From positions 32,001-96,000 of IMG/VR virus record IMGVR_UViG_3300005714_000005: a stretch of 64,000 bases of DNA, one strand, 5' to 3'. The DNA is from a virus. Lineage: Duplodnaviria; Caudoviricetes. Every line of letters begins with the position of its first letter. Within the stretch, counting starts at the first letter, position 1. The notes beneath the pieces were generated by a model. The model saw only the letters and a list, made by a program, of their open reading frames with translations, searched no databases and was not told the DNA's origin. Positions 29,851-38,482 of the stretch are shown piece after piece. Position numbers and translations under genes: made by a program.

Positions 29851-30459
29851 ATGGATATTGTAACTTACGCCTTATGTAAGAAAATGGCAAGTGGTAAAGG
29901 TGAAAAAGGGGATAAGGGAGATAAAGGAGATAGAGGTGAACAAGGTCTGCCTGGTAGAGATGGTGCTGATGGTGTCACTCCCAATTTACAAGTTGGTACT
30001 GTTACAACTCTACCTAGTGGTCAAAATGCTACGGTAACACAAAGTGGTACAAAGGAAGACCCAATTTTCAATTTCTCTATTCCTCGTGGAGATAAGGGAA
30101 TTTATGTTGGTGCTAAAGATACTGCACCCCCAACAGTTGATATTGTAATTGACCATTCTGACATGGGGCTATATTCTGATGAATTAGTAAATACACCTAT
30201 TGTGGGCAATACCTTAACTTTAACTACTCGTAAAAATCAAACAACCACTATGCAAAATAACACAACCATTGTATTGCCTAATGTAAATTCATTCACAGAG
30301 ATTCATCTATTCTTTAGCACAACAAGTGAATTAACATTACAATTACCTGTCGATGTTAAATGGCAAACTCAACCGACTATCGAAGCTAATAAAGTGTATG
30401 AATTTATTTTCACATATGCAACCACTTGGCTTGGAGGGGCGGTATGCTACAATGACTAA
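29851..30459 (+). CDS. Collagen-like tail accessory protein
   Basis: MDIVTYALCKK; GxKGDK collagen repeats; GVTPNL.VGTVTTL...F.IPRG module. Confidence 0.65.
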   Translation: MDIVTYALCKKMASGKGEKGDKGDKGDRGEQGLPGRDGADGVTPNLQVGTVTTLPSGQNATVTQSGTKEDPIFNFSIPRGDKGIYVGAKDTAPPTVDIVIDHSDMGLYSDELVNTPIVGNTLTLTTRKNQTTTMQNNTTIVLPNVNSFTEIHLFFSTTSELTLQLPVDVKWQTQPTIEANKVYEFIFTYATTWLGGAVCYND

Positions 30460-31708: not shown

Positions 31709-33655
31709 ATGTCTATTTATGTAAGAGATGAACATGGCGTGTTACAAGCTCTGAAAATCCCTGCATACAAGGGTGAAAAAGGGGAGGCAGGGGTAACACC
31801 TAATCTTACGATTGGGAATGTTACAACCCTACCTTATGACCAACAAGCCACTGTTGTAATCAGAGGGGATAAGGAAAATCCTATCATTGACTTTGGTATT
31901 CCTAAAGGTCAAGATGGAACTGGAGTTGGGGGAAATAATGTCTTTGATACAGACATTCAGTTCGTTCCTGACCCAATTAAGCAAATTGCAGAAACACCTA
32001 ATGGAACTCCAATTGGTTTCATTATGGATAGATACGCTCGTGTTGAAGCCTACAAATCAATTAAGAGAATAGGTGTCCAAGTGCGAGGATTTGATGGGCA
32101 AAATACTATTGCTTCAAATGTTAAAGCATTTGCAATTAACGCAGATACTCATGAGGTTATGGAGTTATTACATGACCAAACAGGAACAACCCCTATTGAA
32201 TTAATTGATGGTAAAACATTTGCCATGATTAATGTAAACAAAACTTATAATGTCAATACTGTCTTTGCTTTCGGTATTTCTCGTTCAGGGAGCTATGGAA
32301 ATGGTAGTGGTTTAGCAGTACAAGAAGGAACGAATAAAAACTTAATGGCTTCTGCCAATGCCCCAACAGTAGGGACAAGATTAGCAGAATGGACAAGTTC
32401 AAATTGGACTATGGGTGTATATTTTGAATTTAATTCAACAATGGCAGGTAGCTTAACGCAAGAGGTTGCTAATGAGGTTGCTAAAATCAACAACTCAACC
32501 GAAGAATATGCACTATTCAGTACAGCTAGGGGTGACTTTGATAACTCAACTGCTTTTCGTATTCCTGCTATTGTAGTTACGCCTAAAGGTACGATTATTG
32601 CTGCATCTGACATCAGACGTAAAACTGCATTTGACCAATCGTTAATTGACAATGGTATCTCACGTTCAACAGACGGAGGTAAAACATGGACTCAAAAAGT
32701 TGTTATGAGAAATAGTGGAGTTAGTGACTGGTCTCGTGCAATGGACTCTACTATGCTATCTGCTAAGAATGGTGATGTTTATATCTTGTGTGGTGCTTGG
32801 GATAGTAATCGTGGCAATTGGGAAACATCAACTTCAACACCTGACCCTGATTGGAAAGTACGATTAGCAAAGTCTACTGATGATGGAGTAACATGGACTG
32901 AAACTGATATTTCAAGAACGACTTTAAACCAACCACAAGATACAGTATCTTGGTTAGGTGGAGTTGGTACAGGTATTGAAATGTCAGACGGTACATTAGT
33001 ATTCCCAATCCAAATATGTAGACGAGACGGAAATGCAAACTATGTAACTGCGGGTATTATCTACTCTAAAGACAATGGGGCAACATGGACTATGAGTGCA
33101 AGTTTTACACCTCGTAATAACCGCATCTCAGAAAACATGGTGGCAGAAGTTGAAAATGGCATGTTGATATTAACTGGTCGGAATGAGTCAAGTGGAGTTC
33201 GTCCTGCTTACTACACAAGAGATTTAGGTGCTACATGGCAAACTCATAGCTTTATGCACAATTTAATCCATACCAATGCTCGTCCATGTCAAGGTTCATT
33301 CATTACGTTTGATACTTTAGGTGGTCGTAGAGTTGGATTAGTATCAACACCGACTTCGGGTGGAGGAACTCGTAGAGATTTAGGTGTTACCCTAATTGAC
33401 TTCAATGGTCAAAAGACTAAATTGCTAAAAGTATTCTTCCCAACACCATATACAGGTGGGGGTTATTCTTCACTTGCAACAGGATTCCGTAATGGGAAAC
33501 GAATCTTAGTGGTAGCCTATGAAGCACAAGGTCAAATTCATTATCAAGATTTAACGTATTTATTAACCGACATTGAAATGCTTACTAATGGCAATGTAAA
33601 TTTAACAATAGTAACAAATGACGAAATTGACACAATTATTGGTGCATTAAATTAG
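31709..33655 (+). CDS. Tail-anchored exo-alpha-sialidase (GH33)
   Basis: FRIP motif; four Asp boxes (SRSTDGGKTW, KSTDDGVTW, YSKDNGATW, TRDLGATW); RAMDS, WLGGVG, SEN, CQGS, GGGYS motifs; N-terminal collagen/anchor module. Confidence 0.85.
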   Translation: MSIYVRDEHGVLQALKIPAYKGEKGEAGVTPNLTIGNVTTLPYDQQATVVIRGDKENPIIDFGIPKGQDGTGVGGNNVFDTDIQFVPDPIKQIAETPNGTPIGFIMDRYARVEAYKSIKRIGVQVRGFDGQNTIASNVKAFAINADTHEVMELLHDQTGTTPIELIDGKTFAMINVNKTYNVNTVFAFGISRSGSYGNGSGLAVQEGTNKNLMASANAPTVGTRLAEWTSSNWTMGVYFEFNSTMAGSLTQEVANEVAKINNSTEEYALFSTARGDFDNSTAFRIPAIVVTPKGTIIAASDIRRKTAFDQSLIDNGISRSTDGGKTWTQKVVMRNSGVSDWSRAMDSTMLSAKNGDVYILCGAWDSNRGNWETSTSTPDPDWKVRLAKSTDDGVTWTETDISRTTLNQPQDTVSWLGGVGTGIEMSDGTLVFPIQICRRDGNANYVTAGIIYSKDNGATWTMSASFTPRNNRISENMVAEVENGMLILTGRNESSGVRPAYYTRDLGATWQTHSFMHNLIHTNARPCQGSFITFDTLGGRRVGLVSTPTSGGGTRRDLGVTLIDFNGQKTKLLKVFFPTPYTGGGYSSLATGFRNGKRILVVAYEAQGQIHYQDLTYLLTDIEMLTNGNVNLTIVTNDEIDTIIGALN

Positions 33656-33668
33656 GAGGACGATATTC

Positions 33669-34823
33669 ATGAATAACAAATTTATCAACGGAGAAAAATT
33701 ACAATATGCTTTCACTCAATTATGGGCTAAAATGAAAAACACATTTGCCCAAAAGAATGGGGAAAATACATTCACTAAGAAAAATACTTTTGACGAAGCT
33801 GTTATGATTAAACGTGAATCTATGTATATTCATAGTCCAATTAACAACAAGCCTGCCACATTAACAGGAATGCAAAAACTTGCAGGGTATCGTGGTTATA
33901 CTTCACACTCTAACGGAAATAACGGTTATGTAAAATCTGTTAAAGTTCGAGTTAAAGATGACTCTACTGTAGGACATACACTTCGTTATATTGATTTATG
34001 GGCGGTAGAGAAAAAAGATAATTTGGCACAAGACGTTATTGTTGGTAAAATGTATGATTCTTCAGTAACTTGGCTAGCTGTAAAGGAAGAAGAAGGATTT
34101 GGTAAATACGTTGAAATCTTCGTTAATCGCAAATTCGAGAATGAAACATATTTCTTAGTTGAGCATAGCAATAGTGTTACGTATACAAAACCAACTGACG
34201 AAGATGATAATGACATTGTTTATGCACGAAAAGGTACAGTTCCTGAAGTGGGCACTTCAGGTCTTACATCAGAAAGTAAGCGTTATTTATTACAATATGG
34301 TTTAGTTGGAGAAAGCATGAACATTGCTCGTGAGTTAGAAAAAATCTCTAATGGTACTGGGAAACTTGTTTCAAGTGTCAATACTATTAAACCAAACGAT
34401 AAAGGTGATGTTACTGTTGCACCAAAAGACATTCCTGGTTTATTAAGCGACAATGGTAAAATCCACCCTACTCTTGTTCCTGATGTTGCAATTACAAAAG
34501 TTACGGTGGTCGATACAGAGAAAGAAGCTATGGAACTTAGCTCAAGTATCGGGGATATTGTAATCCGCAATGACTTGAATGGTGAATCTTATATCTGTAA
34601 GAATCCACAAGGAGGCACATTCGCAGAACGTTTCATTCGTGTAGGTAGTGCAAGTGATGCAGTTAAAACAATCAACAATCAAGCAGCCAGTGCAGGTAAC
34701 GTTGATTTAGGATTAAAAGCAACTACAACTCAACTTGAATTAACTGTAAATAGCCAAACTGTCGCTACTTTACCTATTATCACAGACCAAGAAGTAAACA
34801 ACATTATCAACGGTCTTAACTAA
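33669..34823 (+). CDS. Tail accessory fibre protein
   Basis: VSSVN..GDVTV, GKIHPTLVP and GDIVIRND fibre motifs. Confidence 0.6.
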   Translation: MNNKFINGEKLQYAFTQLWAKMKNTFAQKNGENTFTKKNTFDEAVMIKRESMYIHSPINNKPATLTGMQKLAGYRGYTSHSNGNNGYVKSVKVRVKDDSTVGHTLRYIDLWAVEKKDNLAQDVIVGKMYDSSVTWLAVKEEEGFGKYVEIFVNRKFENETYFLVEHSNSVTYTKPTDEDDNDIVYARKGTVPEVGTSGLTSESKRYLLQYGLVGESMNIARELEKISNGTGKLVSSVNTIKPNDKGDVTVAPKDIPGLLSDNGKIHPTLVPDVAITKVTVVDTEKEAMELSSSIGDIVIRNDLNGESYICKNPQGGTFAERFIRVGSASDAVKTINNQAASAGNVDLGLKATTTQLELTVNSQTVATLPIITDQEVNNIINGLN

Positions 34824-34869
34824 TTTTAAATAATATCTAAGAACAAAAATATAAAAGGGAGGAAACGGA

Positions 34870-36495
34870 ATGTCTATCGTAGATAAGTCACATCTTCAAG
34901 ATGTGGCTTTAGGTATTTGGAATAAAATCCAAATGAAATTAAATGCTTATGTCCATAAGACAAAGGAGAACGTAGTCGTAGGTAAGACTGTGCTATTCGA
35001 TGGGTACATATCAGGTAATGTCCTAGCTACTTTAAATAATCCAAAAGCAACAGGCTACATTAAAACTGACTCAGCTTTCTTTGTCTGCGAACAATTATTA
35101 GTGTCTGCCAACCAAAAGGTTGGTCAGATTACTATTGGAATTGTCGACAGTAAACAAGTTGGTGATATTGTCACAGGAGTAAACATTGGAGTGGTTAGAC
35201 GCTCCGATAAAAAAGTTTTAGAATATCTAATGCGAAATGGCGTTGGTGTTGCTCATAAGAATACGATAAGCGATTTAGGTTGCGATAGAGCAATTACAAT
35301 CAACGTTGATAAATCATGGTCAGATGACGTTTACCTAATGGTTGGTGCTAATGGGGCATTATGGGGAGATCGTGATAACAACTATGGCGGAGATGCTCTT
35401 GGTGGTCTAACATTACCTGCTGTGGGTAGTACAATTCAACTTAACCGAAATGGTAACTATGTTGGTAAAGCTATTATTCATGGTGATGGAATTGCATTGC
35501 GAGATTTAGCAAACTCTAGTGTCAATGGAGTTACAAAAGATGAGTTTAATCAATTCAAGGGTGAAAATCAACAAGCTCATCAAACAATGACAAATAGTAT
35601 CAATAGTGCTAATAGCAATATCACATCACAAGGTCAACGTATTGGTAGCTTGGAGAGTGGTACTGCTAAATTAAATGCTCGCAATAGATTTACTGCTCAA
35701 AATACTTTTATGGAAAGAAATCCTATTGTTGAGAAATATGCTTCAATCAAAGATATTTTTACAGCAGATGGAGTAGACTCATTCTTAGCGGGTGGGCTAT
35801 ACTGTTGTAATCCACAGGCGGGTATTACAGATTATAACGCCCATATTTCTGCAATAGTTGTTCCTATTAAAGATTCACAACCAGGAGATACAGTTGAGGC
35901 TTCATACTTCACAGTTAATGCTACTACTAGACAATTAACAAGTGATATTCTTGAAGCTAAAACACATACAGTTTTAGATGTGCAGTATAAAGGTGAATAT
36001 TGTATTGCTCTTAATGTAGACAGAACTTTTAACTATCCTGTTTCTTTCGGAATCCGAGTTATGGATAAAGTTTTAGTAGGTAGACGAATTGGTATGTTGA
36101 AACAAGATTTACCAAACCAAGTCAACAACAATGCTTGGAGTTATTATATCAAGCCTACAAATGGACAATACATAGGAAATTATAATGCAAAGTTTACAGT
36201 TCCTTATATGATTGCTCGAAGAATTAGCTCAGAACTTATTACCAAATATGACATCAACATCATGAATAATCCTACAGGTGAGATTAAATTCTTAGCTTAT
36301 GATGCAGGTGAAGTTACAGAAATCAATGGGCGTACTTGGTTGAGATGTGATGGGCAATCAGTGCCAACTTCGGAGTATAATGAATTATGTAAAGCTATTC
36401 AACCTGTATCAGAAGATGGTTCAGAAGTATCGGTAGATTTCAAATTACCAAGTAATAATTCACCTGTTGGGTATACTTACATTTGTGCTAAATAA
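34870..36495 (+). CDS. Tail fibre protein with C-terminal tail-collar domain
   Basis: PTGEI...WLRCDGQSV..SEY.EL...FKLP collar motif; two internal beta domains. Confidence 0.7.
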   Translation: MSIVDKSHLQDVALGIWNKIQMKLNAYVHKTKENVVVGKTVLFDGYISGNVLATLNNPKATGYIKTDSAFFVCEQLLVSANQKVGQITIGIVDSKQVGDIVTGVNIGVVRRSDKKVLEYLMRNGVGVAHKNTISDLGCDRAITINVDKSWSDDVYLMVGANGALWGDRDNNYGGDALGGLTLPAVGSTIQLNRNGNYVGKAIIHGDGIALRDLANSSVNGVTKDEFNQFKGENQQAHQTMTNSINSANSNITSQGQRIGSLESGTAKLNARNRFTAQNTFMERNPIVEKYASIKDIFTADGVDSFLAGGLYCCNPQAGITDYNAHISAIVVPIKDSQPGDTVEASYFTVNATTRQLTSDILEAKTHTVLDVQYKGEYCIALNVDRTFNYPVSFGIRVMDKVLVGRRIGMLKQDLPNQVNNNAWSYYIKPTNGQYIGNYNAKFTVPYMIARRISSELITKYDINIMNNPTGEIKFLAYDAGEVTEINGRTWLRCDGQSVPTSEYNELCKAIQPVSEDGSEVSVDFKLPSNNSPVGYTYICAK

Positions 36496-36521: not shown

Positions 36522-37160
36522 ATGAAACTTACTCAAGAACAATATGAACTTTGCACATTTCTGAATGATTGCGTTTATAATGAATTGGCTTATCCACCTA
36601 CTATGAATATGACTAATCGTATTGTTAAAGGAAGTGGTTTGAGGGTTGAGATTTTTGACTTCCCTCAGACCACTTTTGTTATATTCTGTGGTACGAATAG
36701 AGGTAGTTGGAGAGATTGGCTAACCAATTTCAAAGTTGGATTTGGTTTTGGATTAGTACCTAACCAACATAGACAAGCATTAGCAATCGTTCGTGATGAA
36801 TTATGCAAAGCTCAATTTAAAGGCAAAGATTTAATTGTCGCAGGACACTCATTGGGTTCAGGACTGATGGAGTATAGTATTGCCAACTTAGGTAATACAG
36901 AATACGACAACTATATAGGAATTGGGTACAATGGTTGTGGAGTTAAACATTTGGGTGGATATGCAAAAGAGGGGAAAATTCTTAATATCGTCACAACTCG
37001 TGATATTCTAAACGGTATTACTAGCAAATTGCCAGGAAAGAAATATATGAAACACTATGGGGAAATCCAATATGTTAAAGATAATAGCACTTGGAATCCT
37101 ATCAAGTCACACTCTAACTTTTCAGTTATGATGGACTATAAAATTAACGAAGGAGAATGA
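36522..37160 (+). CDS. Alpha/beta hydrolase (lipase class 3-like)
   Basis: FCGT...DWLTN lid, GHSLG nucleophile elbow, D (RDIL) and H (SHS) candidates. Confidence 0.75.
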   Translation: MKLTQEQYELCTFLNDCVYNELAYPPTMNMTNRIVKGSGLRVEIFDFPQTTFVIFCGTNRGSWRDWLTNFKVGFGFGLVPNQHRQALAIVRDELCKAQFKGKDLIVAGHSLGSGLMEYSIANLGNTEYDNYIGIGYNGCGVKHLGGYAKEGKILNIVTTRDILNGITSKLPGKKYMKHYGEIQYVKDNSTWNPIKSHSNFSVMMDYKINEGE

Positions 37161-37163
37161 AAT

Positions 37164-37751
37164 ATGAAAGAAGTATGGAAAGATATTTACTATACAGATG
37201 AAGTAACGGAAGAAATAATTGATTTTCGTGGATATTATCAAATTAGTAATTTGGGAAGAGTTAAAAGTTTGGCAAGAGTTCACTTTAGAAAAAATGGTGT
37301 AAAATTGTCAATACGAGAGAAAGTAATTAGCCCAGGCGATAATGGTCATGGCTACCTATTTGTCACTCTCTATAATGGCGAAAGCAAAAAGAGATTCTAT
37401 GTTCATAGGTTGGTTGGGCAAATGTTTCTCCAAAAAGAAGAGGGTAAAATCTATATAGACCATATTGATACCAATAGAACTAATAATTGTGTTGAGAATT
37501 TAAGATGGTGTACACAAAAAGAAAATGCAAACAATAGCCTCACGTTAAAACGCAATAGCGACTCAAAAGACAAAACTAGAGTTATTGCCATAAACGAAAA
37601 AGACTGCAAAGTTATAATGTTAAAGAGTATATCTGACGGAAAGAAAATCGGCTTTGACAAGGCAGCTATTTGGCGTTGTTGCAACGGAAAACAAAAGGAA
37701 CATTTGGGTTACAAATTTCAATATGTTGAGAAAAGAGGAATGATAGCATGA
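37164..37751 (+). CDS. Free-standing NUMOD4-HNH endonuclease
   Basis: EVWKDI...YQISNLGRVKS; VHRLV...IDHIDTNRTNN; no intron core flanking it. Confidence 0.85.
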   Translation: MKEVWKDIYYTDEVTEEIIDFRGYYQISNLGRVKSLARVHFRKNGVKLSIREKVISPGDNGHGYLFVTLYNGESKKRFYVHRLVGQMFLQKEEGKIYIDHIDTNRTNNCVENLRWCTQKENANNSLTLKRNSDSKDKTRVIAINEKDCKVIMLKSISDGKKIGFDKAAIWRCCNGKQKEHLGYKFQYVEKRGMIA

Positions 37752-38482
37752 CTTACATATTTAAACAAGATTTAGTACCAAGTAACAAATATTCAATCAA
37801 AGCTCCTTATTCTATGATACCACAATATATCACAATCCACAACACTTCAAACTCTGCACCCGCACAAAACGAAATTAACTACATGAAAAACAATAATAAC
37901 CAAGTTTCTTATCACGTATGTATAGATGAGAAATACGTTATCCAAGCAATCCCTTTTAATCGTAATGCATGGCACGCAGGAGATGGTGCTTATGGTAGTG
38001 GAAATCGCAAATCTATCGGCATTGAAATTGCACGTTCGACTGGCGACATTAATCTATTTAAACAGGCAGAAGCTAACTGTGCTAAATATGTAGCTACTCT
38101 ATTAAAACAATATGGTTGGGGAATTGACCGAGTTAAACGTCATAAAGACTGGTCTGGCAAATACTGTCCTCACAAAACGATGGATTTAGGTTGGGATAGA
38201 TTTTTAAATATGATTAAAGCAGAATTGAATGCTTTAAACAAACTTACTCAACCAACACCTAGCAAACCAACACAAGACACTTCATTCAAAGTTAAGGTTA
38301 TTGCTAAAGAATTAAATGTGCGTAAATCTGCTTCATTTGATAGTGCAGTAGTGACTACTGTTAAGAAAGGTGAAGTGTACACTATTGTTGAGGTTAAGAA
38401 TGGATTAGGTTTATTGAAATCTTACAAAGACAAACGTGACGGTTGGATTTCAATACACTCTGCCTATGTGCAAAAAGTTTAA
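37748..38482 (+). CDS. Endolysin, N-acetylmuramoyl-L-alanine amidase (Amidase_2 + SH3b)
   Basis: ITIHNT, SYH, AWHAGDG, SIGIEI, HKDWSGKYCP; LNVRK...GWIS SH3b. Confidence 0.9.
   Translation: MTYIFKQDLVPSNKYSIKAPYSMIPQYITIHNTSNSAPAQNEINYMKNNNNQVSYHVCIDEKYVIQAIPFNRNAWHAGDGAYGSGNRKSIGIEIARSTGDINLFKQAEANCAKYVATLLKQYGWGIDRVKRHKDWSGKYCPHKTMDLGWDRFLNMIKAELNALNKLTQPTPSKPTQDTSFKVKVIAKELNVRKSASFDSAVVTTVKKGEVYTIVEVKNGLGLLKSYKDKRDGWISIHSAYVQKV

Follow-up and report, generated by a model that had tools for sequence, protein, structure and literature searches.

A pair of terminal peptides at successive gene junctions as a putative docking connector of segmented phage tail fibres

The principle of segmented or branched tail fibres is known. 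In the long tail fibre of T4, the consecutive genes of gp34-gp35-gp36-gp37 encode consecutive segments that are joined end to end and non-covalently, the order of the genes being the order of the fibre; each joint is different, and one of them uses a separate hinge protein. In TP901-1 (BppU-BppL), the C-terminal part of a baseplate protein carries a separate trimer that binds the receptor, and the branched spikes of Ackermannviridae are also among the analogues known in the literature. The respective publications further describe (i) LtfA-LtfB of T5-like phages (DT57C), where consecutive genes again correspond to consecutive, non-covalently joined fibre segments (PMC10713586), (ii) KP32, K11 and KP34, podophages of Klebsiella, where a short conserved N-terminal peptide docks a secondary on a primary receptor-binding protein (RBP) and allows plug-and-play exchange (PMC6872550, PMC13352976), and (iii) the baseplate of 80alpha (FibL/FibU), whose structure includes coiled coils and a collagen-like fibre (PMC7048315). 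In this work, we analyzed a 64,000-nucleotide (nt) stretch of a Caudoviricetes virus (the window; bases 32001-96000 of the 105,750-base IMG/VR record IMGVR_UViG_3300005714_000005, estimated to be 68% complete; about 34% G+C). It holds a trio of same-strand genes, located 3' of a very long tape-measure-like open reading frame (ORF) and other large tail ORFs, at whose two junctions the upstream protein ends in a short peptide (C-peptide) and the downstream protein starts with an amphipathic helix (N-helix). We propose that these two tags probably clip separate fibre proteins end to end by direct docking.

The first protein of the trio is, by its above-threshold profile match, a GH33/BNR sialidase of 648 amino acids (aa) (Pfam BNR_3, PF13859, E-value 3.9e-32, 112 bits vs a cut-off of 27; BNR_2, PF13088, E-value 5.7e-15). 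The second, of 384 aa, had no family match in Pfam or PHROGs. A C-peptide of ~15 residues is the C-terminal end of both, and a helix centred on L-W-x-K opens both the 384-aa protein and the 541-aa protein that follows it, with intergenic spacers of 13 nt (sialidase/middle) and 46 nt (middle/distal). Loose six-frame regular expressions, run on the window and on the whole 105,750-base record, placed C-peptides at ORF ends and N-helices at ORF starts only at these two junctions. The ORF ends were as quoted in an earlier note on this DNA, and its observation that the same pair recurs at two successive junctions stands. The tail-collar domain at the end of the last protein, also stated there, is a candidate: the window protein itself scores 20.7 bits (Pfam Collar, PF07484), under the gathering cut-off of 24; the distal homologue of a related locus, L016, scores 54.3 bits, above the cut-off, and the last 72 residues of the window protein align at 46% identity with the C-terminus of the distal protein of L019.

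Five middle-protein homologues (60-94% identity) were found on short metagenome contigs, and all five keep the order of the trio and both tag pairs. The sialidase of L002 carries at its N-terminus a twice-repeated PQSR-type motif and a glycine run in place of the collagen module, and has an additional domain of ~240 residues inserted, with the C-peptide still at its very C-terminus beside the next gene. When 1.84 billion representatives were searched with a middle-protein family profile (E-value threshold <= 0.001), 582 relatives were retrieved, and their ends are combinatorial. Among 149 representatives, about 50 begin with the N-helix and others with the PQSR-type repeat or with a GFF-plus-glycine-run motif; at the other end, 58 carry the C-peptide and ~15 a collar-type end, and 31 of the 149 bear both tags. 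The consensus of the N-helix is [NK]-[IL]-V-K-x-x-Q-L-x-x-V-x-x-x-L-W-x-K-x-K, and that of the C-peptide M-T-[DE]-x-E-V-x-x-I-[IK]-x-x-F, or more broadly T-x-x-[ED]-[VIA]-x-x-[IL]-[IK]-x-x-[FL]. The position of the tags is strictly terminal: in all 58 proteins that have it, the C-peptide motif ends 1-5 residues before the C-terminus, and no internal copy of either tag occurs in 156 proteins of up to 3077 residues. An alignment of 16 members (22-47% identity) has only 10 invariant columns, three of which are the W and two K of the helix. Where the profile matched proteins with other anchors, the match began at query residue 24-26, directly past the helix, which marks the N-helix as a discrete module, and the C-peptide motif is retained across 28% to 58% G+C. 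Most of the 582 profile matches come from a widespread module at residues 263-369 of the middle protein (a P-x-I-A-I-T motif, then G-D-V-V), which also gave weak tblastn matches to tail proteins from phages of Xylella, Curtobacterium and Arthrobacter.

The evidence that carries the proposal is the adjacency of the two tags on neighbouring genes. We considered as a connector a C-peptide located <=5 residues from the C-terminus and followed, within ~60 nt, by a same-strand gene starting with the L-W-x-K helix. Both window junctions have this form. Gene neighbourhoods were obtained for relatives selected by body homology and on long contigs only, plus loci from DNA patterns; counted at the lineage level, they comprise 19 C-peptide to N-helix junctions in 11 lineages, with spacers of 11-61 nt, and one more junction from a C-peptide to an adaptor (L006), adaptors being small proteins described below. 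Among the neighbourhoods fetched (11 lineages), there was neither an N-helix gene lacking a C-peptide gene directly upstream nor a collar-ended gene followed by an N-helix gene. In a one-sided test, Joint Genome Institute (JGI) metagenome contigs were searched with a DNA pattern of the C-peptide plus stop codon, leaving the downstream side unconstrained. Twelve of the 14 matches were real ORF ends, and in 12 of the 12 the next gene, 11-15 nt away, starts with the N-helix. Two of these genes are cut by the contig end and one is truncated; the 12 loci belong mostly to one lineage plus L056. In seven of the loci there is also an upstream protein with a C-peptide end, a 103-107-aa adaptor in six and a larger protein in L053. 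In L054 (1702-1840), the distal N-helix gene stops after ~45 codons, being either an assembly chimera or a truncated gene.

The chains have a polarity, the N-helix being absent from first genes and the C-peptide from last genes. Their length varies from two to at least four genes. First genes start with N-terminal anchors that are collagen-like (as in the window), of the twice-repeated PQSR type, or of the GFF-plus-glycine-run type; last genes end in the collar domain, with holin or lysin genes next in line. This polarity, the varying chain length and the exchange of partners between phages support, at the level of gene organization, a serial, extendable chain. The earlier note had envisaged an extendable string of fibre proteins with genes added or swapped, and had asked whether the motifs occur independently of gene adjacency across phages; in the 11 lineages they did not, given the 19 junctions and the 12 of 12 of the one-sided test, and the extendable string is favoured by polarity, chain length and partner swaps.

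Tags also recur on bodies that are otherwise unrelated. Over 231 residues, from its residue 3 on, the window distal protein shares 54% identity with its L019 counterpart, but what lies upstream of the chain is a sialidase in the window and an adaptor in L019. The middle and distal proteins of L016 are 56% identical over residues 1-34 and have no further similarity. Elsewhere too the tag is retained while the body changes, as in L002 and in the different bodies found between the same tags. The smallest proteins of the chains, the minimal adaptors of 62-109 aa, consist of an anchor motif and the C-terminal connector only. Their PQSR-type repeat and glycine run look, from their sequence, like a second docking code. 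A long coiled coil ends the gene directly 5' of the adaptor in L052, L059 and L019, and in L006 a 337-aa upstream protein ends in a C-peptide. An insertion sequence (IS)-type transposase gene with an rve domain (L019:8523-9479) lies just upstream of the L019 adaptor, which is shortened to 62 aa, without the PQSR repeats that the otherwise identical 109-aa copy of L020 has.

A fibre in which the two parts are fused gives the complementary picture. The single-chain protein P0030 contains at residues 11-52 a PQSR module 40% identical to the L020 adaptor, and from residue 77 the body that is found in the L016 middle protein from residue 39, i.e. past the N-helix. It has neither the C-terminal connector of the adaptor nor the N-helix, both missing exactly at the join. 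The simplest reading of this comparison is that the two tags together replace the peptide bond when a fibre is split in two genes. In-frame junctions occur in several loci (L016, L019, L046, L049, L053 and L059); they contain a single stop codon and a spacer of 12-18 nt that holds the ribosome-binding site, so read-through of the stop codon there would yield a covalent fusion. For the window, fusion by read-through or frameshift was rejected, as its genes sit in three different frames with ribosome-binding sites between them.

Table 1. Genes and terminal elements of the window trio, adaptor genes, and gene order at related loci (coordinates without a locus are those of the window).
Feature or locus	Coordinates	Strand	Description
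Proximal fibre protein, 648 aa	31709..33655	+	Collagen-like N-terminal anchor, jelly-roll domain, GH33/BNR sialidase propeller, C-peptide; homologues in L002-L005
C-peptide 1	33596..33652	+	Last ~19 residues of sialidase: short strand, T-x-x-E-I-D-x-I-I-x-x-L-N, stop
Middle fibre protein, 384 aa	33669..34823	+	N-helix, jelly-roll, small conserved domain, C-terminal strands, C-peptide
N-helix 1	33681..33749	+	Middle-protein residues 5-27, centred on L-W-x-K-x-K
C-peptide 2	34755..34820	+	Middle-protein residues 363-384: strand 363-370, helix 373-382; conserved in six of six homologues
Distal fibre protein, 541 aa	34870..36495	+	N-helix, two jelly-roll-like domains, tail-collar-like end, no C-peptide
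N-helix 2	34876..34944	+	Distal-protein residues 3-25
Tail-collar-like C-terminal domain, chain end	36277..36492	+	Pfam PF07484, 20.7 bits
Adaptor	L016:9704-9982		Twice-repeated PQSR-type helix motif and glycine run at start
Adaptor	L020:50-379		As above
Adaptor	L052:8738-9049	-	As above
Adaptor	L006:2126-2314	-	As above
L016			92-aa adaptor (PQSR motif, glycine run, C-peptide), then 445 aa (N-helix to C-peptide), 388 aa (N-helix to collar), holin
L017, L047			66-aa adaptor (GFF-glycine, C-peptide), then ~440 aa, ~1060 aa with collar end, holin-like gene
L019, L020			62/109-aa adaptor, then 434 aa, 293 aa, holin-like gene
L021			725-aa PQSR protein with C-peptide end, then 492-aa N-helix protein, lysozyme
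L044			Chain of at least four genes: 1283, 1457, 502, >147 aa
L046			507, 529, 534 aa, then holin
L048 (54% G+C)			Upstream C-peptide variant, then 810-aa N-helix protein
L045			PQSR-plus-collar protein with neither tag, alone before lysozyme gene
L006 (high-G+C siphovirus)			Tape measure, Dit, Tal, then 337 aa (C-peptide end), 62-aa PQSR adaptor (C-peptide end), 654 aa (N-helix start)

The predicted structure of the tags suits a docking role. An AlphaFold2 model of the middle protein, built with 60 aligned relatives (mean predicted local distance difference test score, pLDDT, 79), shows a helix at residues 8-25, a jelly-roll at 52-213 (pLDDT ~90), a small domain at 278-326, strands at 347-370 and a terminal helix at 373-382, the predicted connector being the strand 363-370 together with this last helix. 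Both tags are amphipathic (mean hydrophobic moments 0.42 and 0.38), and the hydrophobic residues of the N-helix show, by inspection, heptad-like spacing. A Foldseek search with the model returned generic jelly-roll matches only, all with E-values above 0.001, and the Protein Data Bank (PDB) holds no sequence relative.

The three genes of the window would accordingly encode successive segments of one tail appendage, joined non-covalently. In the model that we propose, the predicted connector of each upstream protein consists of one to three beta-strands and a 10-12-residue amphipathic helix whose motif lies 1-3 residues from the carboxyl end, and each downstream protein opens with an amphipathic helix of 18 residues, whose hydrophobic residues follow a heptad-like pattern that ends in L-W-x-K-x-K. 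Helices at the C-terminus of protein n may then pack on those at the N-terminus of protein n+1; if both proteins are trimeric, the joint would most simply be a six-helix bundle. The sialidase would sit on the baseplate through its collagen-like N-terminus and carry the 384-aa jelly-roll protein, which would in turn carry the 541-aa collar protein as the distal tip. With the connector at the extreme ends, the fibre could still assemble after the insertion, loss or exchange of whole genes.

Several observations qualify this proposal or weigh against it. First, in-window evidence that the two N-helices are one element is weak, as only 4 of 22 residues are identical; we regard them as the same module because relatives show it (the 56% identity within L016 and the 54% between the window and L019), and not from the window alone. 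The two window C-peptides are closer, with 7 of 16 residues and 25 of 48 bases (52%) identical, four of the seven common residues differing in codon. Second, the 337-aa C-peptide gene of L006 precedes a PQSR adaptor and not an N-helix gene. Third, many loci come from few related gut-metagenome phages, for which reason the 11 lineages were judged by eye and not by a tree. Fourth, a natural in-frame junction folded as a read-through monomer, from only seven sequences, gave a low-confidence model (pLDDT 54, predicted template modelling score 0.29), which speaks neither for nor against docking. Fifth, the two junctions within L016, and likewise those within L019, are nearly identical, which raises the question why, if the tags dock, the middle protein would not bind to itself and the adaptor would not skip the middle protein.

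A last point concerns specificity. Across 17 lineage-level junctions, similarity between C-peptides correlates with similarity between N-helices (r = 0.44), and when partners were permuted within phages the true assignment ranked 4 of 384. Furthermore, C-peptides with I-D after the acidic residue pair with N-helices that have an aromatic residue 5-6 positions before the W (4/4 vs 0/13). This co-variation suggests cognate classes of tags. The tags of one junction are, however, ~100 bases apart on the DNA, and linkage is a sufficient alternative to co-evolution. For the tags themselves, recent duplication or gene conversion was rejected on the residue and base identities given above and on the absence of DNA repeats at the two window junctions.

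The tags might instead act in cis, the C-terminal helix as a foldon-like nucleus of trimerisation or folding and the N-helix as the start of a coiled coil, in proteins that attach singly to the baseplate and are neighbours as tandem paralogues. Both elements are indeed amphipathic helices of the trimerising kind, and many family members bear the two together. We nevertheless consider this explanation unlikely, since tandem paralogy leaves unexplained why first genes lack the N-helix and last genes the C-peptide, why adaptors of 62-109 aa made of anchor and connector alone exist, why both tags disappear together in the single-chain form, and why distal collar proteins do without a C-peptide. 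Binding to a third party, such as N-helices that all attach to one baseplate protein and C-peptides that recruit a chaperone or bind the cell surface, is permitted insofar as direct contact between the tags is itself something that we infer, and the look-alike junctions of L016 would fit it. It appears quite improbable, as it needs two unrelated explanations for the strict one-to-one adjacency and does not account for the joint loss of the tags in the fused form; besides, no conserved chaperone-like gene lies beside the chain. That the conserved gene ends are mainly recombination linkers for the shuffling of fibre modules, with no protein-protein role, is very improbable: mosaic breakpoints do coincide with the tags (the anchor swap and domain insertion of L002; different bodies between the same tags), but conservation is at the protein and not the DNA level (the window C-peptides use mostly different codons), the motif is kept over a wide range of G+C with no DNA repeat detected, and a recombination role would be compatible with docking.

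Direct docking of the C-peptide on the N-helix of the next protein is, in our opinion, the probable explanation. It is tempting to go further and to see in the tag pair a reusable, partly promiscuous connector code of uncultured phages of the Gram-positive type, in which tag classes set the order of the segments and near-identical tags let middle segments be repeated or skipped. We hold this extension to be doubtful, albeit possible. If it were true, a single phage could draw on a gene cassette for fibres that vary in length and composition, and any RBP might be grafted by adding a 25-residue N-helix. Even the simpler docking proposal would provide an annotation rule, by which the gene ends of metagenomic phages whose proteins have no family match tell how many fibre segments there are and in what order, and would explain the gain and exchange of receptor-binding modules, including the exo-sialidase, as whole genes. 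It would also offer a candidate handle for swapping RBPs in phages of Gram-positive-type hosts, comparable to the docking peptides of Klebsiella phages.

Other genes around the trio deserve mention. A 202-aa protein (29851-30459) has in common with positions 31709-31930 of the sialidase gene a collagen-like run and the same conserved domain of ~45 residues. These two elements are probably a common baseplate anchor, in which case two different appendages may use one attachment site. In the region 36522-37751, directly 3' of the distal fibre gene, there is a 212-aa protein with a G-x-S-x-G hydrolase-like motif, and an HNH/NUMOD-like homing-endonuclease ORF (37164-37751) lies between it and an amidase-SH3 endolysin (37748-38482).

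The connector is undescribed as far as we checked: the open-access literature contained no description of this tag pair, and neither the adaptor nor either of the two tags is represented by a family in Pfam or PHROGs. Among cultured phage genomes (INPHARED), searched at the DNA and the protein level, there was no relative of the trio, the middle-protein family or the adaptor, and only weak matches to the central conserved domain appeared. In IMG/VR, protein, alignment and N-helix pattern scans yielded chance matches only, and C-peptide pattern scans one true locus, L006. A pattern scan of GTDB species genomes gave no relative, and a search of 399 genomes from a single class gave only two partial matches. 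The L017 prophage has a flanking gene that matched a Ruminococcus metagenome-assembled genome, at only 37%, which is insufficient to name a host.

Compared with the systems known so far, the trio differs from the baseplates of TP901-1 and 80alpha in that these have one joint only, with no repeated tag pair described there; in Pfam scans, BppU_N was absent from the chain proteins and present only in a separate upstream gene of L045. The likeness to the branched RBPs of Klebsiella phages is closer in function, since their conserved N-terminal docking-type peptide finds its counterpart in an N-helix that stands on otherwise unrelated proteins, a functional analogy and not homology. In those phages an internal T4gp10-like domain serves as the socket and a branch results, whereas here the socket would be the extreme C-terminus and the predicted result a linear chain; no T4gp10-like domain appeared in Pfam and PHROG scans of the three trio proteins, and the hosts and phage types differ. 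With T4 and T5-like fibres, the trio would have in common that gene order mirrors segment order, which for the trio we infer from the adjacency rule. It has no sequence or family relation to them in Pfam, PHROG and PDB searches, and it departs from T4 in that one short tag pair stands at every joint, in chains of two to at least four segments.

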